From the NCBI GenBank assembly GCA_016699955.1, contig CP064993.1, forward strand, positions 810,001 to 842,000: a stretch of 32,000 nt of DNA, written 5' to 3'. The translations under genes and the position numbers were made by a program. Origin of the DNA: Candidatus Saccharimonadota bacterium. GTDB lineage: Bacteria; Patescibacteriota; Saccharimonadia; Saccharimonadales; UBA4665. The notes under the pieces are model-generated. The model ran no database searches and was not told where the DNA came from. It saw only the letters and a program-made list of their open reading frames with translations. This document shows, piece by piece, positions 9 through 32,000 of this stretch (the stretch's first letter is position 1; the number at the start of each line of letters is the position of its first letter).

Positions 9-1421
9 ATGACCTTATCACCACTAGATTTTTCACCTACCTCTGGAGACAATCGCTTTAACAGCATAGATCCGCTCGATGGTCGGTACTATGATCCCGA
101 AATTGCCCGATATTTGTCTGAGCGCACACGTATTTTGACGCAGGCGCACGTGGAAGCTGCCCTTGCCTATGGGCTGGCTGAATTTGGGCTGTGCAGTCAG
201 GAAATTGCCGAGCAGATAGATGCCGCGAGCCGAAAGATTAGCGTGGAGGCTGTCTCAGAAGAAGAAAAAACCACCCGTCATGACGTAAAAGCCATTGTCA
301 ACACTATTAAAAAAGAGCTGCCCGAAACGGCGCAGCCCTATGTACATTTTGGCGCGACATCATACGACATTGTTTCAACCGCCATGAGTTTGCAGCTGCG
401 CCGGGCGATTCGTGAGCTGGTGTTGCCGCGCCTGCAAGACTTGCAAAAAACACTGGCGCAGCTCGCGGAACGTTACGCCGAAACCGTACAAATAGGTCGC
501 ACACACGGTCAACATGCCGTGCCAATTACATTTGGATATTTTCTGGCTACGTATGTAGAGCGGCTAGACGACAGTATACGGCATCTTGATATTTTGGCCG
601 GCGAGCTGAAGGGTAAATTTTCTGGTGCGGTCGGTACATACAATGCTATTTCAGTGTTTGTCGATGACCCGCTAAAGTTCGAAAAAACCGTACTTGGGTT
701 TGTCGGGCTTGAACCTGCTCCGGCTGCGACGCAAATTGTCCCAGCAGAGGGTTACATACGCCTTCTAGATGAGCTTGCAATTGCTGCCGGTGTGATGGCA
801 AACCTATCGCACGATATGCGCAACCTACAGCGTAGTGAAATTGGTGAGGTGCGTGAAAAGTTTGAGGAAGGCCAGACGGGATCTTCGACCATGGCGCACA
901 AGCGCAACCCATGGAACTTCGAAAACGTCATTGGCATGTGGAAACAAGTCACGGCGCAAGTTGTGAACGCGAACCTCAATATTAGCAGTGAGCACCAGCG
1001 CGACCTGACCGATTCATCGTCTGCTCGTTTCTACACGACTTCATTTGCGCTCGTTGCGTCCATGGCGAAACGGCTGCAAGAGGTGATGAGTAAGATTGAA
1101 GTTGACGAAGCGGCCATGAAGCGGAATCTTTATCTTACTAAGGGAGCAATTGCCGCCGAACCTCTGTACTTACTGCTCGAAAAGTACGGGCACACCACAG
1201 CGCACGAAGTATCCAAGGCTCTCGCCCACAAAGCAATGGAACAAAACGTACCCCTGTACGAAGTGGCATCCCAGGCGGAAACCATCGCCCCCTATTGGGC
1301 AAAATTCACCGAAAAAGAGCGCGAACTAATCCTCTCCCCAGAAATCCACTACACTGGCCTCGCAATGATGAGAGCACATAGTTTAGCAGTTCTAAATTTG
1401 ACAAACATACAACATATGTAA
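9..1421 (+). CDS. purB: Adenylosuccinate lyase
   Basis: 470-aa ORF with the fumarate-lyase superfamily signature GSSTMAHKRNPWNFEN and a PurB-like N-terminus (DPLDGRY). Confidence 0.9.
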   Translation: MTLSPLDFSPTSGDNRFNSIDPLDGRYYDPEIARYLSERTRILTQAHVEAALAYGLAEFGLCSQEIAEQIDAASRKISVEAVSEEEKTTRHDVKAIVNTIKKELPETAQPYVHFGATSYDIVSTAMSLQLRRAIRELVLPRLQDLQKTLAQLAERYAETVQIGRTHGQHAVPITFGYFLATYVERLDDSIRHLDILAGELKGKFSGAVGTYNAISVFVDDPLKFEKTVLGFVGLEPAPAATQIVPAEGYIRLLDELAIAAGVMANLSHDMRNLQRSEIGEVREKFEEGQTGSSTMAHKRNPWNFENVIGMWKQVTAQVVNANLNISSEHQRDLTDSSSARFYTTSFALVASMAKRLQEVMSKIEVDEAAMKRNLYLTKGAIAAEPLYLLLEKYGHTTAHEVSKALAHKAMEQNVPLYEVASQAETIAPYWAKFTEKERELILSPEIHYTGLAMMRAHSLAVLNLTNIQHM

Positions 1422-19833: not shown

Positions 19834-20918
19834 CACGCATTTCGCACTTTAACCCCCAACCTGCATAATTAGTAGCAGGGCGTTAGCCCTGCAAAACTAA
19901 GCAGGATAAAATAAACATGTCTCGATCAAAATGTTCTCGCGATCTGTATTGTGCTTTCTTGGAAGTAACAGCAGATAGATATTCAGCATTGTCACTGAGC
20001 GAAGTTGCTCCAGATGGATCGACGCTATCACATGACAGCATCTCTCGTTGGCTTGCAGACGAAAAGGTACAGCCCAAGGATCTGTGGCAGGCTGCTAAGT
20101 CTGAGGTAGCCTCTAAACCTGGTATCCTTGTCTTTGACGATGTAGTCATAGACAAAAGTCGTAGTGGTAAGACTGAATTAGTAAACTGGCAGTATGCCGG
20201 CTCGAAGCACGACATAACTAAAGGTATTGGTGTAGTTAATGCCTTATGGCAAACCAGTAAAGAAGACTACATGCCGATGGACTACCGTATATGGAATCCG
20301 TCGGAAGATGGCAAGACTAAAAACAACCATTTCAGGGATATGCTGACAGCTGTAAAACAGCGTCAACTTACGCCTGAAATGGTTGTTGCCGACAGTTGGT
20401 ATTCCAGTTTAGATAACCTTAAAGCCACTCGCTCTCATGGCTGGGATTGGGTGATGGGGTTACGTAGTAACCGTTTGGTCAACAAACCACATGTACAGAT
20501 TAAAACCCTCGAGATACCAGATGAAGGTCTGGTCGTACACCTCAAAGGATACGGATGGATCAAGCTATTCCGGTTCGTGACCAAACACGGTCGCACGGAT
20601 TACATTGGTACTAGCAAGCTCGATCTATCCAGGAGCCAAGTCAAAGAGTACTTTGAAAGACGTTGGAGCGTCGAAGTGTTGCATCGTGAACTCAAACAAA
20701 CCTGTGGTTTTACTCGCTGTCTGGCCAACACTGGCCGAGCACAGAGAAACCACATTGGGCTCTCTATGCTCACCTGGATACAAAGACACAAGAGAAGATC
20801 TCAGGACAGGCTAAACAATATACAAAACAGCATGTACCAACAAAAGTGGGAGGTCATAAAACCGAGCATCCAGCTAGCGCTGGCTGCTCGTATGCGTGGT
20901 TAAGGTGCGAAATGCGTG
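19834..20918 (+). mobile_element. IS element copy 2 (1085 bp), inverted relative to copy 1
   Basis: Same inverted repeats, non-coding ends and ORF translations in several frames as copy 1. Flanks TCTAA and TTCTA are not a direct repeat. Confidence 0.9.
19917..20903 (+). CDS. DDE transposase (IS4/IS701-like)
   Basis: 328 aa, identical to the 1523-2509 product. Confidence 0.85.
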   Translation: MSRSKCSRDLYCAFLEVTADRYSALSLSEVAPDGSTLSHDSISRWLADEKVQPKDLWQAAKSEVASKPGILVFDDVVIDKSRSGKTELVNWQYAGSKHDITKGIGVVNALWQTSKEDYMPMDYRIWNPSEDGKTKNNHFRDMLTAVKQRQLTPEMVVADSWYSSLDNLKATRSHGWDWVMGLRSNRLVNKPHVQIKTLEIPDEGLVVHLKGYGWIKLFRFVTKHGRTDYIGTSKLDLSRSQVKEYFERRWSVEVLHRELKQTCGFTRCLANTGRAQRNHIGLSMLTWIQRHKRRSQDRLNNIQNSMYQQKWEVIKPSIQLALAARMRG

Positions 20919-21359
20919 TTCTATAAAGATGATATAGCCAAAAATGACGAAATATTCTTACCTGCCGGTAAGGGCCGCACGGCATTTGTAGATGTCCGTG
21001 ATATTGGTGCAGTCGCTGCAGAAGTGTTTACTGGCACTGACCATATTGGCCAGGCATATACGCTGTCAGGCTCAGAGTCGCTTGATTACTACCGGGTTGC
21101 AGAGCTACTAAGTAGCGAACTAGGGCGAACGATTACATATCAAAATCCTTCTGTGGCATATTATGTAGAACGCCTACGTGCGAACGGCTCACCGGCAGAA
21201 TTTATTAAAGTGCAAAAAATGCTCTATTTTGTCGTTAGGCACAACTTTTCATCAGGTACGAAAAGCGACATAGCAAAGCTTATAGGCCGAGAACCGACAG
21301 CTTTTAAACAATTTGCGCACGACTATGCTCATATTTGGGCAAACAATACCAGCAACTAG
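20919..21359 (+). pseudogene. C-terminal half of an NmrA-like / atypical SDR NAD(P)-binding protein, 5' part missing
   Basis: The frame opens exactly at the IS boundary (the track start GTG lies inside the IS end). No Rossmann GxxGxxG N-terminus is present anywhere in the window. Confidence 0.7.
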
Positions 21360-21558: not shown

Positions 21559-22332
21559 CTATCCTTTTTTTACTTGTTTCTTAGATTTTAGGAAATCTGC
21601 AGCGCTGTCGATAAGAAAAAGGCTCACGTCGTCCCGCGTCTCCCCTGAGTCATGAAACGGTGTACTGACAATTCCGATTAGTATCATAATGTAGATCAAC
21701 ACAAAACTTATGATGCCTATGATGGCTAAGCTTCCGTAGAAAGGATCAACGTTAGTTAATATTAAAAGACCAATTACGAAAAAAACAATCGACTTCAGCA
21801 GAATACTGGCAGACGGAATGAACTTAATACGTTGAATGTAAGTAACTCGTTTACGATGACGTAACAATAGTAACTGTTGTTGCTTAAGTTTAACTATGAA
21901 ATTCGCAGGTACTCCGGCTTTTTCCATTTGTCCAAAATAAGGATTTAAGGCTCGAATTTTTGAGCTCATTCCTCTAGCTGCATTGCGTGTATCGTCTTCA
22001 AACTTGAACGCAACTTTTTGTAGTTGTGCCCGGAAACCCTCTAAGTCAAATTTTGGATATGATTTATGAATTTCCTCTGCGTCTGCGTACATATCTTCAA
22101 TATTAGCTGCAAATTCTGCTGGAATACGTTCGGATTCTTTGTAGTCTGCAATAGTCGCTGAAAGTAAAAAACCAATTACAAATGTAGCACTTGAAATAAC
22201 TCCATTGTGTAGCGAGCTTTGTTCAATTGGTTCCCAGCCAAAAGCATGAAAGCAGTATTTAACCCCAACAATCACAATCGCTGAAATTATTGATACAAAA
22301 AAGATTTTTAAATCTGTAAGTTTTTGAAACAT
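21559..22332 (-). CDS. Hypothetical membrane protein (two N-terminal and two C-terminal hydrophobic helices)
   Basis: 257-aa ORF, AT-rich. Its topology was read from hydrophobic stretches. Confidence 0.6.
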   Translation of the reverse strand: MFQKLTDLKIFFVSIISAIVIVGVKYCFHAFGWEPIEQSSLHNGVISSATFVIGFLLSATIADYKESERIPAEFAANIEDMYADAEEIHKSYPKFDLEGFRAQLQKVAFKFEDDTRNAARGMSSKIRALNPYFGQMEKAGVPANFIVKLKQQQLLLLRHRKRVTYIQRIKFIPSASILLKSIVFFVIGLLILTNVDPFYGSLAIIGIISFVLIYIMILIGIVSTPFHDSGETRDDVSLFLIDSAADFLKSKKQVKKG

Positions 22333-22583
22333 TTTATTCTTATAATTATACAGGCAAACTCATCACATTTTACTAAAGAATTATACAAATGCAGTTGAAG
22401 GCGGTGGAACTGGAGGAAAAGACCTGAGTAATCTATCAGCAGGTAGCATGGTAGTGGCTAAAGCCATCTTCATCTTATTCTAAAAGAATACCACATAAAT
22501 GATGCTGTATTTTCTTAACTGCACCTCACCGAATCAACTTCGGTTCCCAGCAGTCTGGTTCGCGTCCAGGGCTGGAAGTAAAT

Positions 22584-22607
22584 AAAAAAGCCTCACAAAT
22601 GTGAGGC
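22584..22607 (-). terminator. Intrinsic terminator after Fic cassette
   Basis: GCCTCAC-AAAT-GTGAGGC, followed on the minus strand by a T6 run. Confidence 0.7.
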
Positions 22608-22616
22608 AACTTTATT

Positions 22617-22646
22617 TGGCACGCAACAATATACGGAATTATAACC
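22617..22646 (-). repeat. 30-nt cassette-end box, copy 1 (GGTTATAATTCCGTATATTGTTGCGTGCCA)
   Basis: Aligns without gaps to the other eight boxes. Lies 63 nt after the Fic stop and is followed by a terminator. Confidence 0.6.
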
Positions 22647-22709
22647 GTTATTAATCTAGAGTTTGCTTGCTTTTAGGGTAAATTGCATTGCCGACAAACG
22701 TACTTAATA

Positions 22710-23261
22710 CTATTCCTTATAGTTGTCTGGCTCTTCGTAATAGTACGATTGTTCTATACCTTTCATGAATACTTCCCGATCATCGATTTTGTCGGTTAAT
22801 GCTGTGCGTAGTAGCTCACGAATCTCTAAATCATTCACAGGACTGCGCTCCATAGCGTTTAAGTAGTCGTTTTTATTGATTTTTTCCCAGTCAATACACT
22901 GTTTCAGATTTTTCTTGAATATCAAATCTAGCCAGATACGCGTACTACGTCCGTTGCCTTCCATGAAAGGATGCGCTATATTCATTTCTACGTATTTTTT
23001 AACAATCTCTTCAAAAGTCGTTTCTGGCATTTTATCTATTTCGGCAAGGCCACTAACCAAATAAACGGCGGATGCAAATGTAAAGCCACCTTTGCTAATG
23101 TGCTTGGAACGAATTTTCCCAGCAAAGTCGTATAGACCACCAAAAAGATACTCGTGAATTTGTCGTAAACCATTTATTGTGCCGACCTCAAAAGCCGACA
23201 AGTCCGAGCTACCAAAGAGTTCTACGGCCCGCTGTTTGCTTATTTCGTCAATGTTTGGCAT
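22710..23261 (-). CDS. Fic family protein, class III-like (C-terminal inhibitory helix)
   Basis: Fic motif [12 protein letters not shown]. About 183 aa from ATG 23261. C-terminal [10 protein letters not shown] carries an SxxxE inhibitory-type motif. Confidence 0.9.
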
Positions 23262-23267
23262 GACTAA

Positions 23268-23276
23268 ATTATAGCA
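23268..23276 (-). promoter_or_regulatory. Extended -10 TGCTATAAT, 6 nt before ATG 23261 (leaderless)
   Basis: Read on the minus strand: TTGTGCTATAAT-TTAGTC-ATG. Confidence 0.55.
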
Positions 23277-23500
23277 CAAAACGGCGGATTATTTATAAGA
23301 TCAACCCCTGTTAAAATGGCAACATCAAAGAAATTGAAACAAGTTATAGTCATTACTAAATCCAAGAAAATCTAGACAATAAAGTAGTGTTTACCCTATA
23401 ATACAGTCTGTAAAAGACGCATACGGGACTGAATCTGACCCAGAGGCGTCTTTTCTGATTAGTTGGAGTTGTGTTGATTTCATTTCCAGACCGCCTATAT

Positions 23501-23531
23501 AAAAAGTCAGAACCGAATTATCAGTTCTGAC
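23501..23531 (-). terminator. Intrinsic terminator after SDR cassette (GTCAGAAC hairpin family)
   Basis: GTCAGAAC-N10-GTTCTGAC with a T5 run on the minus strand. Confidence 0.7.
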
Positions 23532-23543
23532 TTTATCTTTTTT

Positions 23544-23573
23544 AGCTCGGCTCTGCGATACGTCTCTCGAACT
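23544..23573 (-). repeat. 30-nt cassette-end box, copy 2 (AGTTCGAGAGACGTATCGCAGAGCCGAGCT), diverged
   Basis: Lies 6 nt after the SDR stop, in the same position relative to a terminator as the other boxes. Confidence 0.45.
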
Positions 23574-23579
23574 TTTTTG

Positions 23580-24323
23580 CTACTGATTTAAATCGTTGTA
23601 GCGATGTTCGTATTCACCAGTAGCAACCGCATCAGTAAAATATTTCACTCGCTCTACTTGTATTTCATCTATTTCAGGATTGTTTTCAAGTAAATTTGTT
23701 ACTTCGGTAATGAAATCAGCAAGGGGCATAGCGTTGGGGTCGTTAGCTTGTTCTGGACTGATTAGTTCAGTTTGTACATAAGGCGGAATAAGCTCGATGA
23801 CTTGAATGCCACTATTTTTTAGCTGTGTACGAAGAGACTGCGTGTAAGAGTGTATTGCAGCTTTTGTTGCGCAGTACGATGGAAAGCTTGCACCTGGGAT
23901 AAATGCTAATCCCGAAGAAACAGTAACTATTACAGCGTCGTTGTTACCCTCAAGAATTGGAAGCAATTTAGAATTTAACTCCATCTGCCCGATTAAGTTA
24001 GTGGCGATTATGGACTTTGCAGTCTGTATATCATTGTCACCAATCTTTTCTGCTTTCATCATTCCGGCATTGAGTATCAGTACATTGAGATCAGGGTATT
24101 TTTCATATACTTGAGCGACTAGGGCATCTATTGATTCGCTAGTTGTAACATCGAGCTCTAAAGTCTCCATGCCCTCGTTAGCTTTAGCGACTTCCTCAAG
24201 TCTTGCCTTGTTTCGTCCCGCAATGATAACTTTATTACCTTTACGATGGAACATTTCGGCCAAACCTTTCCCAATTCCAGAGCCACCGCCAGTAATTAAG
24301 ATTGTATTTTTAAACATTTTCAT
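23580..24323 (-). CDS. Short-chain dehydrogenase/reductase (classical SDR)
   Basis: TGGGSGIG cofactor motif, NAG motif, catalytic YCATK. Confidence 0.9.
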   Translation of the reverse strand: MKMFKNTILITGGGSGIGKGLAEMFHRKGNKVIIAGRNKARLEEVAKANEGMETLELDVTTSESIDALVAQVYEKYPDLNVLILNAGMMKAEKIGDNDIQTAKSIIATNLIGQMELNSKLLPILEGNNDAVIVTVSSGLAFIPGASFPSYCATKAAIHSYTQSLRTQLKNSGIQVIELIPPYVQTELISPEQANDPNAMPLADFITEVTNLLENNPEIDEIQVERVKYFTDAVATGEYEHRYNDLNQ

Positions 24324-24329
24324 ACTTTT

Positions 24330-24338
24330 ATTTTAGCA
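24330..24338 (-). promoter_or_regulatory. Extended -10 TGCTAAAAT, 6 nt before ATG 24323 (leaderless)
   Basis: Minus strand reads TTGTGCTAAAAT-AAAAGT-ATG. It shares the TTGTGCTA prefix with the Fic promoter. Confidence 0.55.
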
Positions 24339-24481
24339 CAATCACCGATGGGCTAGATGCTCTTGTCTGTATATGGCGCACAACTAAAGACAGGTCGTGG
24401 GTACAGGTCTGTTCTTGGGGTACCTGGTTGCCATATAGGGAAATGGTTACTGACGAAACGCACCATCAGGGGTAATAAATC

Positions 24482-24503
24482 AAAAACCGTCCTTTCGGAC
24501 GGT
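24482..24503 (-). terminator. Intrinsic terminator inside long spacer module L1
   Basis: ACCGTCC-TTTC-GGACGGT with a T5 run on the minus strand. Confidence 0.6.
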
Positions 24504-24610
24504 TCTGATGGTTTTGGTCAGTTGTTAAAGCTGACATTCTTCTTGTCTGACCAAGGAGTTAATGTGGGAACAGGTCACGGAACCTGGTCACTACTTTTCA
24601 CTGCTTGGTT

Positions 24611-24640
24611 TGGCTCCTCGCAATAGAGGAAGTTATGACT
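24611..24640 (-). repeat. 30-nt cassette-end box, copy 3 (AGTCATAACTTCCTCTATTGCGAGGAGCCA)
   Basis: Lies 47 nt after the stop at 24688. Confidence 0.65.
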
Positions 24641-24687
24641 GTAATTAAGAGGGATTATTCTGGAGTACTATAAAGACACTTCGCAAC

Positions 24688-25066
24688 CTACGTTTCGAGA
24701 TATTGCAATGGAACCGCAGCATGCTGGTCTTCTGTAAACCGATGGCCATTATCAATTGATAAAGTTGGATCGATTCCTATCGCGTAGCCGGGGTTTCGCG
24801 ATATGAGATTTGCTGCTTCTGCCGCTACGCATATTTTAGTGTAAGCATCAAGTACTACTGCTCCTCCGCGCTTTTTTAGCAGTGCGTCCTTATAAGCGAT
24901 TTCCTTCCGTAATATGTCAAGCGGCTTTTTGATGTCAGGAAAGAGTATAAGGCTGACATAATCGCCAAAAGTATTCAAAAACGGATCCGAGTCTAAGGCC
25001 TTTCGCCTCGTTTGTGTATCCGCCCAAAGATCGGGTGCGCCGGGACCGCTGAAATATAGGTTTTGC
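24688..25066 (-). pseudogene. 3' part of a 175-codon cassette gene split by the IS at 25067-26174
   Basis: The frame is open up to the IS boundary. It joins in frame to 26175-26331 once the IS and one GGTTTTGC copy are removed. Confidence 0.7.
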
Positions 25067-26174
25067 GGCTTAAGACCAAAATCTGGTTGCTGCTAAAGCT
25101 TTAAAACAAGGCCAAAACAAATACGGACAGGCTCGCCTCATGTATTCTTGTAGTTGCAAAACTAAGTAAGGAAAAAACTAATGAGAGCTAAGCACTGTCC
25201 GTATTTCAATTGTACCAACGTTAAGAAAAATGGGGTGAGAAATAGCAAGCAAAGATACTACTGCTGTTCCTGCGAGGCGTCTTGGATTAACAAAGCTCGA
25301 CCGATTCGTAGCCTTAACAAACTGTGGGATCAATATGCATTTGATGGTCTGACGGTAGCAAAATTAGCTCGTAATTGCAGTAAAAGCAGAGGCTATATCC
25401 AGACCAGACTAAACGCCTATGTCCCTTTACCCATAACTCAAAAACCTCATACCGTAGCCGTCATCATGGATGTTACCTACTTTGGCAGCTGGGGCATTTT
25501 GGTTGTCATCGATCCATACGCGAACACAAGCTTAGGAGAGAACGTCGTATTGTACTACGCAGAGGTTGAAGGCACTGAAAAGACCCGTGACTACGTGATC
25601 GCAACAGATACGGTCGAGGCTATGGGCTACAGTATCATTGCTGCTACGATTGACGGCAGACGAGGAGTGCGGAACATGCTTGAATCCAAAGGCATACCCG
25701 TCCAGCATTGTCAGTTTCATCAGCTCATGACCATTACCCAATGTCTGACGAAGCGACCCAGACTGACTCAGAACATCGAGCTGCGAGCCATTGCTCTGAC
25801 ACTCAGTAGAACGGGCGAGATGGCGTTTGAAGAGGCTCTGGCCGGTTGGTACAGCAAACACGGCGAATGGCTCAAGGAACGCGATGCAGTCACGGGAAAG
25901 TTCTCGCATGAACGTACCAGACGAGCCTACTTTAGTTTGATTAGGAATCTACCCTATTTGTTCACCTTCCGGCATGATTATCTACAAGAATACACTCAGC
26001 AGACCGGCAAGCAAATCGCCAATACAACCAGCCCATTAGACGGCAGATTTGGAGTCTGGAAAGACAGACTCATACCCCACAGAGGGTGCTCAAAAAGGCG
26101 TACTTTTATATTGCTTTGTAGTTTCTTCTCTAGAACAACAGATTAGGGTAGCAACCGAAAAATGGTCTTAAGCC
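25067..26174 (+). mobile_element. IS element (1108 bp), zinc-ribbon DDE transposase, IS1/IS1595-like
   Basis: 12-bp perfect terminal inverted repeat GGCTTAAGACCA. An 8-bp direct repeat GGTTTTGC flanks it at 25059-25066 and 26175-26182. Confidence 0.85.
25181..26146 (+). CDS. Transposase with N-terminal zinc ribbon (IS1 InsA-like / IS1595-like)
   Basis: CPYFNC...NGVRNSKQRYYCCSCEASW zinc-ribbon pattern, followed by VIMDVTYF and ATIDGRRG acidic motifs. Confidence 0.8.
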   Translation: MRAKHCPYFNCTNVKKNGVRNSKQRYYCCSCEASWINKARPIRSLNKLWDQYAFDGLTVAKLARNCSKSRGYIQTRLNAYVPLPITQKPHTVAVIMDVTYFGSWGILVVIDPYANTSLGENVVLYYAEVEGTEKTRDYVIATDTVEAMGYSIIAATIDGRRGVRNMLESKGIPVQHCQFHQLMTITQCLTKRPRLTQNIELRAIALTLSRTGEMAFEEALAGWYSKHGEWLKERDAVTGKFSHERTRRAYFSLIRNLPYLFTFRHDYLQEYTQQTGKQIANTTSPLDGRFGVWKDRLIPHRGCSKRRTFILLCSFFSRTTD

Positions 26175-26331
26175 GGTTTTGCTGATAAATTACGGGATTG
26201 CCACGTGCCAGAGTTCTGTGCAGTTTCTCCGACAGGTACTCATAATAACCCGCTGGCATTGAGGCCGATGGCCTATGTACACCAGTCTCAAGATCATAAA
26301 CGCCATTCACATGCTTAACAACAGCCAACAT
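26175..26331 (-). pseudogene. 5' part (52 codons) of the cassette gene split by the IS
   Basis: MLAVVKH...GNPVIYQQN, then the reading runs into the IS end and stops after 10 IS-encoded codons. Confidence 0.7.
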
Positions 26332-26338
26332 ACATAAT

Positions 26339-26347
26339 AAAATACCA
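26339..26347 (-). promoter_or_regulatory. Extended -10-like TGGTATTTT, 7 nt before ATG 26331
   Basis: Overlaps the 3' arm of the preceding terminator hairpin (ATACCAC/GTGGTAT). Confidence 0.35.
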
Positions 26348-26370
26348 CATTAAGTGGTATTTGTAAATAT

Positions 26371-26547
26371 CTTGGCTCCGGGGACTGGGTCGCTACGCTC
26401 TTCCGCTCAATAGTGCTCGAAGCAAGCTTCTGCGCGCTATATCGCTACACCGAACTAGTGACCACGCTCACGTTGTTCGCTTGTCGCTAGGTCAAACTCA
26501 ATCTCGAGATCCAAATTAAAACCGCCTCATTCGAGACGGTCATAATT
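26371..26547 (-). repeat. Structured spacer module A
   Basis: The first 85 nt are identical to module C (28197-28281). On the minus strand it ends in CCCCGGAGCCAAG. Confidence 0.8.
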
Positions 26548-26577
26548 TGGCTCACAACGATAGAGGAAGTTATAACC
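26548..26577 (-). repeat. 30-nt cassette-end box, copy 4 (GGTTATAACTTCCTCTATCGTTGTGAGCCA)
   Basis: Lies 32 nt after the stop at 26610. Confidence 0.75.
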
Positions 26578-26609
26578 ACAATTAAGCAAGACTCATATGC
26601 ATAAAATTC

Positions 26610-27236
26610 TTAGTCGAACCAGTGCTTGTGCATCTCTGACATGAATTCCTTTGTAATCGGAAAACCAGATTTGTCACCAATAACAGAATCAATCCCGCAC
26701 TTGGGGCATAGCGCGCAGTCATTATCATCGACCCATTCTTCGATTTTGTTGGGTGTGAATATATCTCCACAATAGAAACAGCCACATTCTTTGCTGGCGA
26801 GAACCTCTTCCCAATGCCTGGCGGTGTGCGTATGGGCCTCACGAATGTCTTTAGGCATAGCGGATTTCGCAGTTTCTAGTTGTTGGATTAGCTCGTCAAA
26901 CTCTTCTTGTTCTTTTTGTGAAATAGGTTGATCGGTCAACGAGGGAGTTTCCTTGGGTAGGGGTTTGCGTGTGTGGGATGCCATATCCTGACTACATGCC
27001 CCAAATGTCCTAAAGTTCTTCTTTGCTTGATTTAAGGTAAGTCCGTGATTTGGGCCGTAACATGGTTCGTCTGGGTTCTTTTGATGATCATCGTCTATAC
27101 TGTCGTCTTCCCGGAAACACACAGGGCATATATCATACATGCCCTTATGAGCGGCATCTATGGTAAGAAAACCGCATACTTCACATGCGGCACGGTTCTT
27201 AATATTAGGAGCTTTGGCACGCTTGAACCAGTTCAT
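26610..27236 (-). CDS. Cysteine-rich fusion protein: N-terminal CPCC-type domain plus C-terminal CxxC...CxxC zinc-ribbon domain
   Basis: CEVCGF...YDICPVCFREDD...GPNHGLTLNQAKKNF at the N-terminus, and CGCFYCGDIF...EWVDDNDCALCPKCGIDSVIG at the C-terminus. Confidence 0.75.
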   Translation of the reverse strand: MNWFKRAKAPNIKNRAACEVCGFLTIDAAHKGMYDICPVCFREDDSIDDDHQKNPDEPCYGPNHGLTLNQAKKNFRTFGACSQDMASHTRKPLPKETPSLTDQPISQKEQEEFDELIQQLETAKSAMPKDIREAHTHTARHWEEVLASKECGCFYCGDIFTPNKIEEWVDDNDCALCPKCGIDSVIGDKSGFPITKEFMSEMHKHWFD

Positions 27237-27242
27237 AAATGT

Positions 27243-27251
27243 AGTATAACA
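27243..27251 (-). promoter_or_regulatory. Extended -10 TGTTATACT, 6 nt before ATG 27236 (leaderless)
   Basis: Minus strand reads CTGTTATACT-ACATTT-ATG. Confidence 0.5.
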
Positions 27252-27281
27252 GTTCTAACGTTGCAGGCTCAGCTTACCCCA

Positions 27282-27321
27282 AACCAAACTAACAGAGACT
27301 TTCGTCTCTGTTAGTTTGGTT
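27282..27321. terminator. 18-bp perfect hairpin (AACCAAACTAACAGAGAC / GTCTCTGTTAGTTTGGTT, loop TTTC)
   Basis: Exact reverse complement arms, located directly after module B on the minus strand. Confidence 0.6.
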
Positions 27322-27326
27322 CTAAC

Positions 27327-27492
27327 CTTGGCTCGGGGGACTGGGCAGCACACACTAATCTATGCGCCGAGTAAACTCGGGCATTAGTCTAATGACCGAA
27401 CCCAGCGGCCTGACTCCGCTTTGCGGAGTGGTCGCAGGTTAAAGCCAGTCTCAAAGCAAGAAAAAACGAGCCCAAAAGGACTCGTCTTTTCT
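27327..27492 (-). repeat. Structured spacer module B
   Basis: Its last ~63 nt are part of an 81-nt run (27430-27510) identical to 28309-28389; the run continues 18 nt into the adjacent box. On the minus strand the module ends in CCCCCGAGCCAAG. Confidence 0.8.
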
Positions 27493-27522
27493 TGGCTCAC
27501 AACGATAGAGCAAGTCATAACT
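27493..27522 (-). repeat. 30-nt cassette-end box, copy 5 (AGTTATGACTTGCTCTATCGTTGTGAGCCA)
   Basis: Lies 4 nt after the stop at 27527. Confidence 0.75.
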
Positions 27523-27526
27523 GCGA

Positions 27527-28135
27527 TTAAATTAGATTTTGCCCATTGATGCCCGAAAAGACTATATTAAAATAGTGATTTGTGTGCTGGACAAAACGCT
27601 CTTTGAATTCATTCCTTGATACGATTTCTTCGCTGTTCTTCGCCTTTATCCATTCAACTCCATCGACCTCTCCATCTGGAAAAGTGAAGGTCATATCATC
27701 TCTGTATTCAACGGTATAAACGAACCTTAATTCATCTTTGTGACTGTCTTCTGTTTTTCTCTGATAATGTTCAACCCCAGCAAAATAAAGATCGTCTGTG
27801 TTAATTGAAATACCTAATTCTTCTTTTGTTTCTCGTATTGCTGCTGCAACCTCATCTTCATTCAGGTCAATGTGTCCAGCTGCAGAAATATCTAGTAATC
27901 CTACTTTGTAGTCAACTTTTGGTGCAGCCTTTTGGAATAATAGGTATAGTTCATCATTTTCTTTTTTCCAAATCCAAATGTGAGCTGCTGCATGTGGTAT
28001 GCCACTAGAAAATGCACGTTCATGGCCTGTGCCTTTTTGTGGAACCTGCGTGCCATATTTAGTATAAATTTGCCAATCAATCATTCGTACATTATACCCC
28101 ACAAAAAACATGGGCATTTTATCGTTCGGTTTCAA
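27527..28135 (-). CDS. NUDIX hydrolase (start uncertain: TTG 28135, ATG 28117 or ATG 28111)
   Basis: Nudix box GHIDLNEDEVAAAIRETKEELGI. Confidence 0.8.
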   Translation of the reverse strand: MKPNDKMPMFFVGYNVRMIDWQIYTKYGTQVPQKGTGHERAFSSGIPHAAAHIWIWKKENDELYLLFQKAAPKVDYKVGLLDISAAGHIDLNEDEVAAAIRETKEELGISINTDDLYFAGVEHYQRKTEDSHKDELRFVYTVEYRDDMTFTFPDGEVDGVEWIKAKNSEEIVSRNEFKERFVQHTNHYFNIVFSGINGQNLI

Positions 28136-28151
28136 TTCTTGTCTGGGTATG

Positions 28152-28182
28152 AAAAAGTCAGAACCATTTTCACAGTTCTGAC
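28152..28182 (-). terminator. Intrinsic terminator (GTCAGAAC hairpin family)
   Basis: GTCAGAAC-N10-GTTCTGAC with a T5 run on the minus strand. Confidence 0.7.
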
Positions 28183-28196
28183 TTCATCTGTTCCAG

Positions 28197-28371
28197 CTTG
28201 GCTCCGGGGACTGGGTCGCTACGCTCTTCCGCTCAATAGTGCTCGAAGCAAGCTTCTGCGCGCTATATCGCTACACCGAACCAGCGACCTACGCTCACTT
28301 TGTTCGCTGGTCGCAGGTTAAAGCCAGTCTCAAAGCAAGAAAAAACGAGCCCAAAAGGACTCGTCTTTTCT
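28197..28371 (-). repeat. Structured spacer module C (mosaic of A-left and B-right)
   Basis: 28197-28281 is identical to 26371-26455, and 28309-28389 is identical to 27430-27510. Confidence 0.85.
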
Positions 28372-28401
28372 TGGCTCACAACGATAGAGGACGTTATAAC
28401 C
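28372..28401 (-). repeat. 30-nt cassette-end box, copy 6 (GGTTATAACGTCCTCTATCGTTGTGAGCCA)
   Basis: Lies 35 nt after the stop at 28437. Confidence 0.75.
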
Positions 28402-28436
28402 GCCATTATGCTGGATTTAACGGTGTCCAGCGTTGC

Positions 28437-28655
28437 TTAAGCTGGTTTTAACGAAATTATATTATCCATGCCCATGCTTGATACTTTCATTTGAGATAAA
28501 TTATTCACCAACTCCATGCATTCTTTAGAATGTTTTGAATCTTCATTGATAATATAGCTTGCTTGATAGAATTTATCACCACTTCCACTTACCTGATTTA
28601 ATTTCACTTTCAGGGATCTCCTTACTTTTGGGCAGTGTTCCTGTAGCCCATTCAA
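28437..28655 (-). CDS. Hypothetical small ORF (72 aa), overlaps the next ORF out of frame
   Basis: ORF only. It may be the frameshifted continuation of 28576-28821. Confidence 0.3.
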   Translation of the reverse strand: MNGLQEHCPKVRRSLKVKLNQVSGSGDKFYQASYIINEDSKHSKECMELVNNLSQMKVSSMGMDNIISLKPA

Positions 28656-28821
28656 ATTCTCTAATTACCTGCGCTGCAACTTCTTCATCCCAATCTTTTT
28701 TCGAGCGACCCTGGACTTCCTTATTCATAACTTCATGAAACTGCTTATCAGGACTATTATGTGGTCCACGATTTGCTGAGAGAATTTCTTTTAGCCGTTT
28801 ATGAAATCGATCTTTATTCAT
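28576..28821 (-). CDS. Hypothetical small protein (81 aa), translationally coupled to the hydrolase gene
   Basis: Its start overlaps the hydrolase stop (ATGAATAA, 8-nt overlap). Confidence 0.45.
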   Translation of the reverse strand: MNKDRFHKRLKEILSANRGPHNSPDKQFHEVMNKEVQGRSKKDWDEEVAAQVIREFEWATGTLPKSKEIPESEIKSGKWKW

Positions 28822-29392
28822 TCAAAATGTGTAGCAATTTCTCTTTCAAGTCTTCAAACTCTGTGTACCCAGCTCTAGCGTTAAAGTGCCCTGCATTAGG
28901 TATAAACGACAGCTCAACTCCTAAGTGCTTTGCTAACTCTTTGCCATTGTCTAGTCCCACATAAGGGTCATCATCGGACTGGTATACTATGAAGTCTTTG
29001 GCTTTCTGCTTAATATTGTCCCACTCAAAATCAAAGCCACTAAAGGCACTGTCGCGATCATAATTGAGAATTGGCCTAACACCTATTGGTGCGCCGACAA
29101 AGAATGCTGCCTTAATAGGGTGTTTTAACTTTTCTAAAACACGAAGTGTAAAGATTCCGCCTAAGCTATGTCCAATAATAATTGTATTTTCCGTAATCTT
29201 ATCTCCGTAGTCTTTCAAAACATCAACCCACTCAGAAATCTTTGCAGGAACAACGGGTGGCGACGGAAACTGCGGAACAGTAACTTCGTATCCTTTTGCT
29301 TCAAGCTCGCCTTTTAGCCAAGGAAACCAGTTTTCCTGCGGGTGGCCTTCTGTGCCATGAAAAATAAAAATGTTTGGTTTATCTTCAGTCAT
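28814..29392 (-). CDS. Alpha/beta serine hydrolase, YdeN/RBBP9-like
   Basis: 192 aa with nucleophile elbow IIGHSLGG, a late DDD...GHF pattern, and typical family size. Confidence 0.85.
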   Translation of the reverse strand: MTEDKPNIFIFHGTEGHPQENWFPWLKGELEAKGYEVTVPQFPSPPVVPAKISEWVDVLKDYGDKITENTIIIGHSLGGIFTLRVLEKLKHPIKAAFFVGAPIGVRPILNYDRDSAFSGFDFEWDNIKQKAKDFIVYQSDDDPYVGLDNGKELAKHLGVELSFIPNAGHFNARAGYTEFEDLKEKLLHILNE

Positions 29393-29407: not shown

Positions 29408-29495
29408 GATACGAACACATTGCTGGTTTCAAATCTAGGGTGCCTATATAAAAATCAGAACTAAATTAACAGCTCTGACTTTGTCTACTATGGTC

Positions 29496-29525
29496 TGGCT
29501 CACACTAGCAGACGCATTGCGAACC
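29496..29525 (-). repeat. 30-nt cassette-end box, copy 7 (GGTTCGCAATGCGTCTGCTAGTGTGAGCCA)
   Basis: Lies 48 nt after the stop at 29574. A degenerate GTCAGAAC-family hairpin follows at 29455-29478. Confidence 0.65.
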
Positions 29526-29573
29526 GCCTGTCTGGATTTTGATAAAAGTAATTTGAATGAAATAAAGGCAATC

Positions 29574-29750
29574 TTAGCGACGGCTGCTTAGTTTATTCAC
29601 TAACTTATTGTATTGCCCTTTTGTCAAAAAGACCCTGTGGATGTTTGGCTTACTTGTATTTCCAGTAAGTGTCGCTTTTGTCGTTATGCCCCAGTCTACA
29701 ATCGTCATGTTAGTTAGGTCTACTTCAACGAAGTAATACTCTTTTTTCAT
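29574..29750 (-). CDS. Hypothetical small protein (58 aa), below the ORF-track cutoff
   Basis: ATG at 29750 with SD GGAGG 9 nt upstream. A cassette-end box and hairpin follow it. Confidence 0.5.
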   Translation of the reverse strand: MKKEYYFVEVDLTNMTIVDWGITTKATLTGNTSKPNIHRVFLTKGQYNKLVNKLSSRR

Positions 29751-29812
29751 GCTGTTCAGCCTCCATCTATATCTATTCTACACCCAGCTTTGGTAAATCT
29801 ATACCGCAAAGC

Positions 29813-29837
29813 AAAAACACCTTCCTTTCGGAAGGTG
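29813..29837 (-). terminator. Intrinsic terminator directly after the tRNA-3'-end-like sequence
   Basis: CACCTTCC-TTTC-GGAAGGTG with a T5 run on the minus strand. Confidence 0.7.
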
Positions 29838-29845
29838 CTTATACT

Positions 29846-29870
29846 TGGCTCCGGGGAAAGGATTCGAACC
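29846..29870 (-). other. tRNA 3'-end-like sequence (T-loop, acceptor 3' strand, discriminator, CCA); no complete tRNA
   Basis: Minus strand reads GGTTCGAATCCTTTCCCCGGAGCCA. The upstream sequence does not form the matching T-stem, acceptor stem or other arms. Confidence 0.6.
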
Positions 29871-29976: not shown

Positions 29977-30153
29977 ATGAATAAGCCACAGCTAAAACGC
30001 ACCAAAAACGTTAATCGAGCTGTTGCCAATGAACGACTCGAGGGCTTGAAGGTATCTGAAGATTCCCGAAAAATTGCTGGCGAATATATTTCTGGTAAGG
30101 CTTCTGCAAAGCAAGCCGCCTCTAAAATACGAGCACGATACGGGGTGCTGTAA
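29977..30153 (+). CDS. VbhA-like antitoxin of a class I Fic toxin (58 aa), below the ORF-track cutoff
   Basis: RAVANERLEGLKVSE resembles the VbhA inhibitory helix (consensus (S/T)xxxE(G/N); here NERLEG). Its stop overlaps the Fic start (TAATG). Confidence 0.75.
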   Translation: MNKPQLKRTKNVNRAVANERLEGLKVSEDSRKIAGEYISGKASAKQAASKIRARYGVL

Positions 30154-30752
30154 TGTCCGATTTTGTCGATCCCTACCTGGATGACAAGACCGGCATCTTA
30201 CGCAATCTACTTAATGCCGGGACGAATGATGAGTTAAAAGATCTAGAGGCTCAAATAGTTTTTGCCAACGAACTAGAACTCGAAGAAATCGGAATAAAAC
30301 GAACTAGTGACCTATCTGAATTACTGGCAATTCACAAACAGCTGTTCGGTAACGTGTACGATTGGGCTGGTGATATACGTACTGTCGATATTAAGAAAAA
30401 TAGCGATAATGCCGAGTATTTCTTACCTGTTAGCAAGATATTAGGTGCGTGCGAGTATGTTTTTGCTGAGCTTACCAAGGAAAACTATTTGAAAAATTTA
30501 GATAAAGAAAAATTCGTAGAACGTTTGGCCTATTTTTATGACCAGCTAAACTATGTTCACCCGTTTCGTGAAGGCAACGGTCGTACGCAACGAGTCTTTT
30601 GGACAAGAATTGCTCACGGTGCTGGATATGAGATAGGTTGGGACGAAGTAGTTGGCAATGAAAACGACGAAGCATCACGCATCGCCGCAGAAAAGATGGA
30701 TTTATCTCCACTTACTGCGATGTTTGCAAAGATTATTAGCTCACTACAATAA
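30153..30752 (+). CDS. Fic family toxin (class I, VbhT/FicT-like)
   Basis: Fic motif HPFREGNGRTQR. Translationally coupled to the upstream small antitoxin ORF. Confidence 0.9.
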   Translation: MSDFVDPYLDDKTGILRNLLNAGTNDELKDLEAQIVFANELELEEIGIKRTSDLSELLAIHKQLFGNVYDWAGDIRTVDIKKNSDNAEYFLPVSKILGACEYVFAELTKENYLKNLDKEKFVERLAYFYDQLNYVHPFREGNGRTQRVFWTRIAHGAGYEIGWDEVVGNENDEASRIAAEKMDLSPLTAMFAKIISSLQ

Positions 30753-30994
30753 ACTCTTGTGCCAGCAGTAAAACTTTTCGGTCAGGGAACTCGGTCTGGT
30801 TTCTGTCTGTCCAGCTTCCATAGGGGCGACTGGTCAAGGTTCGAACCAGAATAACAGAGGTAAATACGAAGAACCACCATTTCTGGTGGTTCTAACGTTT
30901 ATCGGGTTCGAACTGCTTTCGAACCTTCCGCAAGGCTAATCAGAGAAGTAAAACCTTGTCATGGAACCCGGTCTGGGTATTTCTCTGCTTGGTC

Positions 30995-31024
30995 TGGCTC
31001 CAGCTAGCGGATGAGTTGTGAACT
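30995..31024 (-). repeat. 30-nt cassette-end box, copy 8 (AGTTCACAACTCATCCGCTAGCTGGAGCCA)
   Basis: Lies 81 nt after the stop at 31106. Long module L2 follows. Confidence 0.6.
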
Positions 31025-31105
31025 GTTAGTATCTATTTTGATAAACACAAGCTACTAGTAATTGGGGACGTTTTAACGAGCGAAAGTTATTACACATGCT
31101 AACTG

Positions 31106-31753
31106 CTATTTTTGCACATCACGCTCATGATCGAGCTGTGTCTGTGTTGGCCTCTGCATTAAAGGAGCCATCTTATCATGAGGTATATATATACTATTAA
31201 GTGTTTTCCGTAAATCCACATAGCTAATAATATTGATGGGTATTCCGAGTAAATTTCCAATCTCAGTTGCTTCGGCATCAAGCGGAACGCTCGCCTTATA
31301 GAAAGGAAGTCCGAATCTATTGATATTCCACTCCACCATATACCTATCTGCTATTTCAATCTGTTCGTCAAAAACTACATTCAGGTATAGGGTACACCAC
31401 CTATCACCAAAAAAAATATGCTCGTTTCCATCGAAACCCTTCAAGTAGTCCAGACTGCGTACGTCTGTACGGTCAAGCCGCCTAATCCATCGCTTGTCGC
31501 CAATCATTCGCTTGTATTCAATAGTGATGGTGCCGTCCGATGCCATTGTGACTGTACGAGTCTCGACATACTTCACCATGAATATACCGAAGACGGTTAA
31601 TAATAAGCCAACTACAATAAAAGGCAGTTCTTGGGTATAGAGGCCAATCGCTGCAAGCACAACACCAACGCTACCGGCACTTAGACCATAAACAAATTGT
31701 AGGGTGTTTTTTTCGATAATTTGGAGTGTGCTGCCATTTTTTTGGAAAATCAT
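31106..31753 (-). CDS. Hypothetical membrane protein (two N-terminal helices plus soluble domain)
   Basis: 215-aa ORF with hydrophobic segments at about residues 20-60. Confidence 0.6.
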   Translation of the reverse strand: MIFQKNGSTLQIIEKNTLQFVYGLSAGSVGVVLAAIGLYTQELPFIVVGLLLTVFGIFMVKYVETRTVTMASDGTITIEYKRMIGDKRWIRRLDRTDVRSLDYLKGFDGNEHIFFGDRWCTLYLNVVFDEQIEIADRYMVEWNINRFGLPFYKASVPLDAEATEIGNLLGIPINIISYVDLRKTLNSIYIPHDKMAPLMQRPTQTQLDHERDVQK

Positions 31754-31883: not shown

Positions 31884-31913
31884 TGGCTCCGCTTACAGGT
31901 CACGAATTTTTAA
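31884..31913 (-). repeat. 30-nt cassette-end box, copy 9 (TTAAAAATTCGTGACCTGTAAGCGGAGCCA), diverged
   Basis: Ends in GGAGCCA, is followed by a terminator, and sits after an ORF that runs off the window end. Confidence 0.45.
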
Positions 31914-32000
31914 CAGGGTAAAACGCTACAAATGAGTTACTACATGTGGTTTTTGGCGAACCATTCATGTTCTATAGCACTTCTTGGAGAGTCAACAACC

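Follow-up and report, generated by a model that had tools for sequence, protein, structure and literature searches.

Cassettes joined at a GAGCCA core in a Saccharibacteria genome: probable serial accretion at the 3' end of tRNA-Asn by large serine recombinases

An array of short cassettes with shared junctions

The window analysed here is the whole 32,000-nt stretch of a Candidatus Saccharimonadota genome (contig CP064993.1). From about 21.4 kb to the window end at 32.0 kb it carries an array whose genes are short, unrelated and, with few exceptions, on the minus strand. Their identifiable products belong to diverse families, and the genes are separated by arms, leaders and three gene-less modules. 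The features, in window coordinates, are as follows.

21559–29392, minus strand: span of the single-gene cassettes
21559–22332, minus strand: cassette gene with no family match
22710–23279, minus strand: Fic cassette gene
23580–24323, minus strand: SDR cassette gene
24611–24657, minus strand: diverged box1 arm (antisense WLLAIEEVMTVIKRD...) and core, then a T3 leader
25066–26175, plus strand: IS256-family insertion (Zn-binding variant) with 26-nt terminal inverted repeats
26373–26514, minus strand: module A, with the architecture of module C, its 3' 93 nt being 98% identical to module C
26548–26594, minus strand: box1 arm (antisense WLTTIEEVITTIKQD...) and core
26610–27236, minus strand: CPCC cassette gene
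27329–27460, minus strand: module B, with the architecture of module C and a different insert, ending in CCAGTCCCCCGAGCCA
27493–27539, minus strand: box1 arm (antisense WLTTIEQVITAIKLD...) and core
27527–28135, minus strand: NUDIX cassette gene
28199–28339, minus strand: module C, gene-less, ending in CCAGTCCCCGGAGCCA
28372–28418, minus strand: box1 arm (antisense WLTTIEDVITAIMLD...) and core
28576–28821, minus strand: cassette gene with no family match
28814–29392, minus strand: serine hydrolase cassette gene
29496–29588, minus strand: box2 arm junction, whose antisense is a 30-residue tail of the large serine recombinase type, WLTLADALRTACLDFDKSNLNEIKAILATAA and a stop
29574–29750: 58-aa ORF of a cassette outside the 21559–29392 span, no family match
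29815–29845, minus strand: right side of the 25-mer junction, a 'T2' leader made of AGTATAAG and a terminator hairpin
29846–29870, minus strand: 25-nt copy of the tRNA-Asn(GTT) 3' end, assigned by identity to real tRNA-Asn genes (the 25-mer)
29977–30752, plus strand: cargo of the VbhA/Fic cassette, with the VbhA antitoxin at 29977–30153 and the Fic toxin at 30153–30752
30995–31040, minus strand: box2-like arm junction (antisense WLQLADEL and a stop), then a long T3 leader
31106–31753: ORF of a second cassette outside the 21559–29392 span, no family match
31884–31910, minus strand: box3 arm junction (antisense WLRLQVTNF and a stop), then a terminator hairpin

Eleven junctions were found in the window, all on the minus strand and all sharing GAGCCA. 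Throughout, they have the form left arm-GAGCCA-leader. The left arm is of four kinds, all present in this array: the tRNA-Asn 3' end (26373, 27329, 28199 and 29846), box1 (26548, 27493 and 28372, plus the diverged copy at 24611), box2 (29496 and 30995) and box3 (31884). Downstream of most junctions a hairpin comes within a few bases; the two junctions with a T3 leader have a longer structured leader instead. The initial annotation placed a flip of cassette orientation at the 25-mer. The VbhA and Fic genes, whose cassette ends in the 25-mer, do lie on the strand opposite to the other cassette genes, but the change concerns the gene direction of that one cassette only, and all junction sites stay on the minus strand.

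The IS256-family element interrupts the array and is separate from the junction system, and an IS701 copy truncates the distal end of the array. ORF 25181–26146 was considered as the array integrase and rejected, since it encodes an IS256-family transposase and has inverted repeats of its own. No large serine recombinase (LSR) gene was found in the window, and no Phage_integrase domain among the window ORFs scanned. The only LSR remnant in the window is a 30-codon tail at 29496–29585 that matches LSR tails.

The 25-mer copies a tRNA-Asn 3' end exactly

Read directly, the minus strand from 29870 to 29846 is GGTTCGAATCCTTTCCCCGGAGCCA. It can be parsed as GGTTCGAATCC-TTT-CCCCGGA-G-CCA, that is, a T loop, the 3' T stem CCTTT, a 3' acceptor strand, a discriminator G and CCA. 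The 25-mer forms the left arm of one junction, with the core GAGCCA at 29851–29846, and on the other strand it encodes WLRGKDSNQ, with two stop codons right at the point where tRNA identity ends. On its 3' side lies AGTATAAG and then a terminator-like site (29840–29815); a G+C-rich hairpin with a T run starts 8 nt downstream, where the initial annotation had a terminator. The same T2 leader type is also found directly behind intact tRNA-Asn and behind boxes in other genomes. Terminator aside, the one pairing in the fold of the 25-mer region is a weak one of 7 bp.

No relation to tRNA is seen in the sequence upstream of the 25-mer, and a complete cloverleaf is absent. ARAGORN reported zero tRNA genes in the 32-kb window, and Rfam gave no match at gathering score for the 25-mer, the boxes or the modules, the sub-threshold matches being terminator hairpins only. 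Since both searches were empty, only the 3' end of a tRNA is present at the 25-mer, in agreement with the initial annotation. The tRNA fragments of the window are co-oriented, and none belongs to an intact tRNA there.

The end of the 25-mer recurs. We found CCCCGGAGCCA, allowing at most one mismatch, at four sites in the window, all on the minus strand (26373, 28199 and 29846, and 27329 with one mismatch), versus 0.21 expected; four sites were reached in 0 of 100 shuffles. The shorter GAGCCAAG has nine sites versus 0.82 expected, six of which are minus-strand array sites. The repetition that had been proposed at 26373, 27329 and 28199 was seen at all three as CCCC(G/C)GAGCCA. The T-loop 11-mer alone is unremarkable, with a match of at most one mismatch in 29 of 100 shuffles. 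The whole 24–25-mer, unlike this 11-mer, is identical to real tRNA-Asn genes elsewhere.

An exact metagenome scan with the 24-mer matched ten contigs. Seven of them (loci L123, L125, L126 and L129–L132) carry an intact tRNA-Asn(GTT) with the T stem GAAGG/CCTTT that ends in exactly the 24-mer. In contig L127 a tRNA-like sequence of about 100 nt goes uncalled by ARAGORN, and in L128 a recombinase gene follows a 40-nt tRNA copy. The 25-mer differs from the commonest tRNA-Asn allele, also seen in modules A–C, in having CCTTT where that allele has CCAGT. The description of this sequence as a tRNA mimic was therefore right about the tRNA 3' end and wrong about mimicry, as the sequence is a literal copy of a tRNA-Asn allele. 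The expected donor of Asn or Gln type proved to be tRNA-Asn(GTT), seen in related metagenome contigs.

Boxes lie downstream of tRNA-Asn in related genomes

A species-representative genome collection was scanned with a degenerate 30-nt box pattern. At least 120 loci were recovered, nearly all of them in MAGs of Saccharibacteria or other Patescibacteria. The consensus of the box has about 47 nt (aaatcttgcttaattgcGGTTATAACTTCCTCTATYGTKGTGAGCCA). ARAGORN was run on 119 listed box loci, and tRNA-Asn(GTT), present in 26 of them, was the sole kind of tRNA. In those 26 loci every box (33 of 33) lies downstream of tRNA-Asn on the same strand, with none upstream and none opposite, and the distance from the tRNA to the first box is typically about 0.6–1.6 kb. 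The earlier expectation that a tRNA borders such arrays is thus borne out in these relatives. Every tRNA-Asn gene in the 26 loci ends in GAGCCA, and the sequence right after its CCA is one of the same few leader types that are found behind boxes. The genes upstream of tRNA-Asn vary (SmpB-like, LexA-like by eye, and others) and none is a recombinase; a conserved gene upstream of tRNA-Asn was rejected as a candidate on account of this variability.

What the boxes encode is best seen on their other strand. Mean entropy, taken over 160 distinct box1 copies, is 0.51, 0.44 and 0.92 at the first, second and third antisense codon positions, and conservation extends over about 15 codons. Although some positions were fixed by the search pattern, the upstream half of box1, which it left unconstrained, is equally periodic. 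We considered the boxes as degenerate tRNA fragments and rejected this, as the distance from GGTT to CCA is 5 nt greater in box1 than in the tRNA. It is because of this offset and of the codon-periodic conservation on the other strand that a tRNA origin of the boxes was dropped, and they are better described as putative antisense LSR tails than as tRNA derivatives. The 5-nt offset of GGTT presumably resembles the offset between attP and attB half-sites described for serine integrases. It had also been claimed that GAGCCAAG ends most boxes. This needs a small correction: only two of the four well-preserved box1 copies end so, the other two end in GAGCCAAA, and the invariant core is GAGCCA.

A Xer/dif site is 28 nt long, with XerC and XerD arms around a 6-nt spacer. 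Sites of this kind (pdif-type) were rejected for the boxes, the likeness being a 7-nt resemblance (ACTTCCT) judged by eye against dif consensus sequences.

Large serine recombinases read through the core

Clustering of about 1500 ORFs from 120 listed loci and the window revealed a family of LSRs with the domains Resolvase, Recombinase and Zn_ribbon_recom. In L029, L064 and L108 an LSR gene of opposite orientation lies just behind a box and continues through GAGCCA into it, so that the last residues of the protein, WLTTIE(E/D)VITxIKxD, are the antisense translation of the box. With L122, four loci have LSR ORFs that read through the core into box1. The same arrangement is seen at tRNA genes: the LSR gene of L121 overlaps tRNA-Asn by 42 nt, the LSR of L130 likewise reads into tRNA-Asn, that of L128 reads into the 40-nt tRNA copy, and an LSR relative overlaps tRNA-Trp in L134 and L135. 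In the LSR frame the core reads TGG CTC, Trp-Leu. Because the reading frame crosses the core, the last 9–30 codons of the LSR are the antisense of whichever left arm is adjacent.

A search with one LSR as query gave 807 homologues at E ≤ 1e–10. Among the best 120 of these 807, the C-terminus is antisense to tRNA in 95, with the pattern W-L-(R/P)-(R/G)-(L/P)-(D/G)-S-N-(Q/R)-(R/Q)-P-..., which is the antisense of the T arm and acceptor strand. C-termini of box type were found in 13 of the same best 120 (4 box1, 4 box2 and 5 box3), the box2 tail being WLxLADTLRTA... and the box3 tail WLxIQVTDF.... The 95 homologues that read into an antisense tRNA 3' end point to a large, so far unrecognised class of probably tRNA-targeting serine integrases in the candidate phyla radiation.

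LSR genes that are intact, or cut only by the end of the locus or contig, occur in about 10 of some 135 loci, and in three more (L035, L038 and L077) truncated LSR remnants adjoin boxes. An LSR lies directly at the tRNA in 0 of the 26 genome loci with tRNA-Asn. No relatives of the LSR were found in IMG/VR viral contigs, either with a single protein or with a 32-sequence profile. The initial annotation had expected an integrase next to the array. In relatives LSR genes do abut tRNA genes or boxes, and the window itself has none; moreover, the recombinase is of the serine type and not the tyrosine integrase that a tRNA-targeting element would normally imply.

Whole elements and neighbour exchange at the junctions

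Two loci show how complete elements are arranged. The order in L121 is tRNA-Asn, LSR, a Phage_CRI replication gene, HTH_17, cargo and, at the far end, a box2 arm, about 10.3 kb in all. L122 is a tandem in which tRNA-Asn, cut by the contig end, is followed by LSR_A and further genes up to box1, and then by LSR_B and further genes up to a box3-like arm; here LSR_B reads into the box1 that ends the LSR_A element.

Comparison of loci places the change of neighbour at the core. Window positions 29489–29823 are 97% identical to L083, and identity stops at GAGCCA. L124 shares the end of the Fic cassette with the window, 25-mer included, but differs in the leader beyond GAGCCA. Conversely, the same LSR right arm is found beside box1, a full tRNA or a partial tRNA, the change falling exactly after GAGCCA. 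The T1 leader shares GAAGTCAGAA with the 3' coding region of the L121 LSR, at a distance from the core of +14 versus +13, which suggests that cassette leaders may retain the recombinase-proximal arm. All sites examined were hybrid junctions, with no excised attP form among those recovered. The attP and attB sites of LSRs have 40–50 bp and an imperfect dyad symmetry about a central dinucleotide; seven junctions were compared for such symmetry around the core, and no centre of it stood out.

Modules A, B and C contain an interrupted tRNA half

The three modules of the window each sit behind a box plus hairpin, and modules of this kind are present in many genomes, often immediately behind tRNA-Asn. 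They open with a 5' arm similar to the tRNA 3' end in reverse complement, continue with a small hairpin and close with a tRNA-Asn 3' half whose T loop is broken after GGTTCG by a structured insert of 55–60 nt. They end in CCAGTCCCC(G/C)GAGCCA, and the version CCAGTCCCCGGAGCCA corresponds to the commonest tRNA-Asn allele. The 5' arm is able to pair with the acceptor-like 3' strand.

A consensus fold of whole modules (MAFFT alignment) recovered the T stem alone. The insert folded by itself gave two helices with strong covariation among 14 modules: 91% of cells are paired, compensatory changes occur in 8 of 10 pairs, and the covariation score is 0.569 versus 0.242 for shuffled alignments and 0.07–0.14 with slid partners. 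This covariation indicates that the insert is under selection as a folded single strand, of RNA or DNA.

Serial accretion at tRNA-Asn and its alternatives

Overall, we suggest that LSRs added elements and cassettes one after another at the tRNA-Asn 3' end and that the elements later decayed, and we give this reading a probability of about 0.68. The LSR family common in Patescibacteria is the most likely agent of the junctions. From sequence comparison we infer that the LSR catalyses the exchanges, where the crossover lies, in what order insertions took place and that cassettes lacking an LSR gene can move in trans. The link between recombinase and tRNA rests on relatives because the window has neither an LSR gene nor a tRNA. 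Likewise, serial insertion at a tRNA-derived core, as initially proposed, finds its support in the comparison with relatives and not in the genome of the window.

Under serial accretion, the chain of cassettes would start directly after the CCA of tRNA-Asn(GTT), as it does in related genomes, and the tRNA-Asn of this genome would be expected to the right of position 32000 on the minus strand. Integration at the GAGCCA of the tRNA would keep the tRNA intact. The LSR gene would come to lie at the tRNA-proximal end of the integrated element, on the opposite strand, and would gain its antisense-tRNA tail upon integration. The arm carried by the element, either a box or a tRNA-like copy of the 25-mer kind, would land at the far end; the 25-mer itself would be the far-end arm of the VbhA/Fic cassette. 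Repeated integration beside the tRNA would shift older elements outward, and loss of the LSR and replication genes would leave single-gene cassettes bounded by a leader and an arm.

Several points count against this model. Among them are the small number of LSR genes in the loci, their absence directly at the tRNA in the 26 genome loci with tRNA-Asn, and the lack of a dyad symmetry around the core. LSRs recombine attP with attB and not attP with attL, so repeated insertion beside an already occupied tRNA needs an explanation. Modules A–C have no explanation in LSR-mediated accretion. Finally, no excised circular cassette was observed in the material compared here.

A bolder and less probable version is an integron-like capture platform of Saccharibacteria and other Patescibacteria at the 3' end of tRNA-Asn and, in some cases, tRNA-Trp. 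The LSR tail would be rewritten at each recombination, single-gene cassettes with both arms preserved would be moved in trans, and the modules would be a new structured accessory element. If so, the tail, encoded either by a box or by antisense tRNA, could act as a built-in switch of directionality or activity.

Ordinary homologous recombination after DNA uptake, with boxes and leaders as the homology and no dedicated site-specific system, is unlikely. It would make use of the 47-nt boxes and 50–70-nt leaders, which are conserved at the nucleotide level across many genomes, and it would suit the many cassettes (most of them) that have no recombinase nearby. However, the breakpoints fall at the 6-bp core instead of being scattered across the conserved blocks, and the anchoring to tRNA-Asn, the uniform orientation and the coding-type conservation of the boxes would be left unaccounted for.

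Slightly less credit goes to crossovers made by tyrosine integrases within tRNA-Asn, in its T loop or its anticodon loop, with the copies as displaced or regenerated fragments and the LSRs as incidental cargo. A crossover at GAGCCA does not itself account for 25–40 nt of tRNA sequence in an element, and a tyrosine integrase crossing over in either loop yields such fragments directly. In fact, the T loop is where the 25-nt copy begins, and the anticodon loop is where those of 40 nt in L006, L063, L097 and L128 begin, both typical sublocations of tyrosine integrases (PMC4383910), and tandem island arrays at tRNA genes are known (PMC4383910). Nevertheless, the junction breakpoints lie after GAGCCA and not in the loops, the boxes are not tRNA fragments, and LSR frames consistently cross the core, with box conservation tracking their codons. 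A motif screen for the tyrosine-recombinase box II, a weak test, found none in about 1500 ORFs of the 120 listed loci and the window.

We regard as improbable a purely RNA-level role, in which the sequences serve as tRNA-like 3' tags on cassette transcripts or small RNAs (for processing, CCA-end function or stability). The ends are indeed placed between cassette gene and terminator on the transcribed strand, and the modules offer both an insert that covaries as a folded single strand and a 5' arm that can pair with the acceptor-like 3' strand. Against this, the 25-mer lacks a 5' partner and folds weakly, boxes show antisense codon periodicity rather than base-pair covariation, and Rfam matches are absent. 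An RNA-level role may nonetheless apply to the modules, in addition to a DNA-level role and not as a replacement for it.

An integron proper, with an IntI tyrosine recombinase, attI and promoterless cassettes bounded by attC, resembles this array in having mostly single-gene, functionally unrelated cassettes split by a repeated element and was rejected as next to impossible: there is no intI in the window or the loci, the boxes have neither R''/L''...L'/R' inverted repeats nor a GTTRRRY core and thus no attC organisation, their conservation is codon-periodic and not hairpin-like, related arrays are headed by tRNA-Asn instead of intI/attI, and the cassettes have their own terminators and promoter-like leaders.

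Comparison with known systems

Our literature search, which may have missed some work, found no description of this tRNA-Asn/LSR cassette system. Its nearest functional analogue would be the composite SCC island of staphylococci at rlmH. SCC and SCCmec elements at rlmH (orfX), and the Enterococcus cassette chromosome, are moved by the LSRs CcrAB and CcrC. The likeness extends to the serine-recombinase family, a housekeeping gene, conserved and left intact, whose 3' end is the insertion site, elements accreted in tandem with short direct core repeats between them, and recombinase-less units in the same array. However, the target here is a tRNA gene, and a unit often consists of one gene of about 1 kb. 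In addition, the recombinase ORF here crosses the core and has its C-terminus set by the neighbouring arm, and the repeats are 25–90-nt arms with antisense coding conservation.

By target, the nearest analogue would be a tRNA-gene island. Islands at tRNA and tmRNA genes of the kind found by Islander have an intact tRNA at one end and direct-orientation 3' fragments further on, as here, and newer elements are likewise expected beside the tRNA (PMC4383910). They are the work of tyrosine integrases that cross over inside the tRNA, whereas the recombinases here are LSRs. According to the same 2014 paper, serine integrases were not known to target tRNA genes (PMC4383910). In our system the core consists of the final 6 nt of the tRNA, made up of the last two bases of the acceptor stem, the discriminator and CCA. 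Integrons share with this array a fixed primary site and a series of small unrelated cassettes, each ending in a conserved recombination-associated element; here, in contrast, there is no IntI and there are no attC hairpins, cassettes have their own leaders and a tRNA is the primary site.

The system would explain a hypervariable accessory region, with toxin-antitoxin, NUDIX, hydrolase and further genes, in very small genomes. Defined att sites and matching LSRs would also be candidate tools for the genetics of bacteria in which manipulation is difficult. If the arrays are only ordinary decayed islands, a precise rule for annotating this region in Saccharibacteria genomes remains.

Recombinases whose own gene contains the recombination site have precedents. 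A work cited in PMC4383910 reports that Myxococcus phage Mx8 alters the C-terminus of its integrase IntP, and SSV-type archaeal integrases (PMC7253208) likewise have a gene that spans attP. Both resemble our LSRs in that the recombination site lies inside the integrase ORF and integration changes its 3' part. They differ in being tyrosine recombinases; here a serine recombinase would have a short C-terminal tail swapped, with antisense tRNA as the replacement, and would be a natural example of a recombinase C-terminus exchanged through the enzyme's own reaction.

Recombinase family and its probable tRNA targets

Relatives of the large serine recombinase (LSR) whose reading frame crosses the GAGCCA core of the cassette junctions were found at tRNA-Trp(CCA) in two of the compared loci:

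L134 6001-7541, LSR relative, antisense to tRNA-Trp(CCA)
L135 288-1828, LSR relative, antisense to tRNA-Trp(CCA)

In both, the gene overlaps the tRNA by ~66 nt on the antisense strand, and the LSR tail derived from the overlap reads WQGWQELNPRPSVLETDALAN. This overlap indicates that the family is not confined to a single tRNA as its target.

Four loci (L006, L063, L097 and L128) share an element end, GAGATAGTCCACGC-hairpin-...AAGTG, that is conserved and fused to a 40-nt tRNA-Asn copy starting in the anticodon loop; in L128 an LSR reads into this fusion. These ends may represent a separate element family or point to another crossover position.

tRNA-like sequences

Gene-less modules in the array and a tRNA-like sequence in another locus are as follows:

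26373-26514, minus strand, module A
27329-27460, minus strand, module B
28199-28339, minus strand, module C
L127 about 517-620, minus strand, tRNA-like sequence of ~100 nt

Each module contains the 3' half of tRNA-Asn, interrupted in the T loop by a 55-60-nt insert, and has a 5' arm that resembles the tRNA end in reverse complement. The insert forms a two-helix hairpin with covarying helices and conserved GCGCRCAG...CGAGCA; an Rfam search of the modules gave no match. Modules are also present outside the window, in L011, L015, L063, L085, L094, L098, L123 and further loci. The L127 sequence starts with TCCGGGG, ends with GGTTCGAATCCTTTCCCCGGAGCCA and contains a long insertion. It was called by neither ARAGORN nor Rfam and could represent either an interrupted tRNA-Asn or some tRNA-like element.

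Leaders downstream of GAGCCA

30760-30995 and 24467-24611, minus strand, T3 leader (also in many loci)
27256-27324, minus strand, T6 leader hairpin, after module B

The T3 leader, a conserved 150-240 nt located 3' of GAGCCA, carries a long hairpin (GACCAAGCAGAGAAA...TTCTCTCCTTGGTC), palindromes (GGTTCGAA/TTCGAACC) and a terminator-like hairpin. The perfect 18-bp T6 hairpin scores below gathering against Rfam psRNA14 (40.6 bits versus 60) and looks like a terminator rather than a psRNA14 member.

Insertion sequences and Fic cassettes

1508-2592, IS701-family copy 1, 1085 bp
19834-20918, IS701-family copy 2, 1085 bp
25066-26175, IS256-family element, Zn-binding variant (transposase ORF 25181-26146, plus strand)
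29977-30752, plus strand, VbhA antitoxin/Fic toxin pair
22710-23279, minus strand, second, solitary Fic gene

The IS701-family copies, 100% identical and mutually inverted, enclose ~17 kb of housekeeping genes; copy 2 cuts short an NmrA-like ORF (20916-21359) at the array's distal edge. Within the array, the IS256-family element (26-nt terminal inverted repeats) appears to split a cassette ORF into parts at 24688-24978 and 26143-26331. The VbhA/Fic pair is the array's sole cassette with plus-strand genes.
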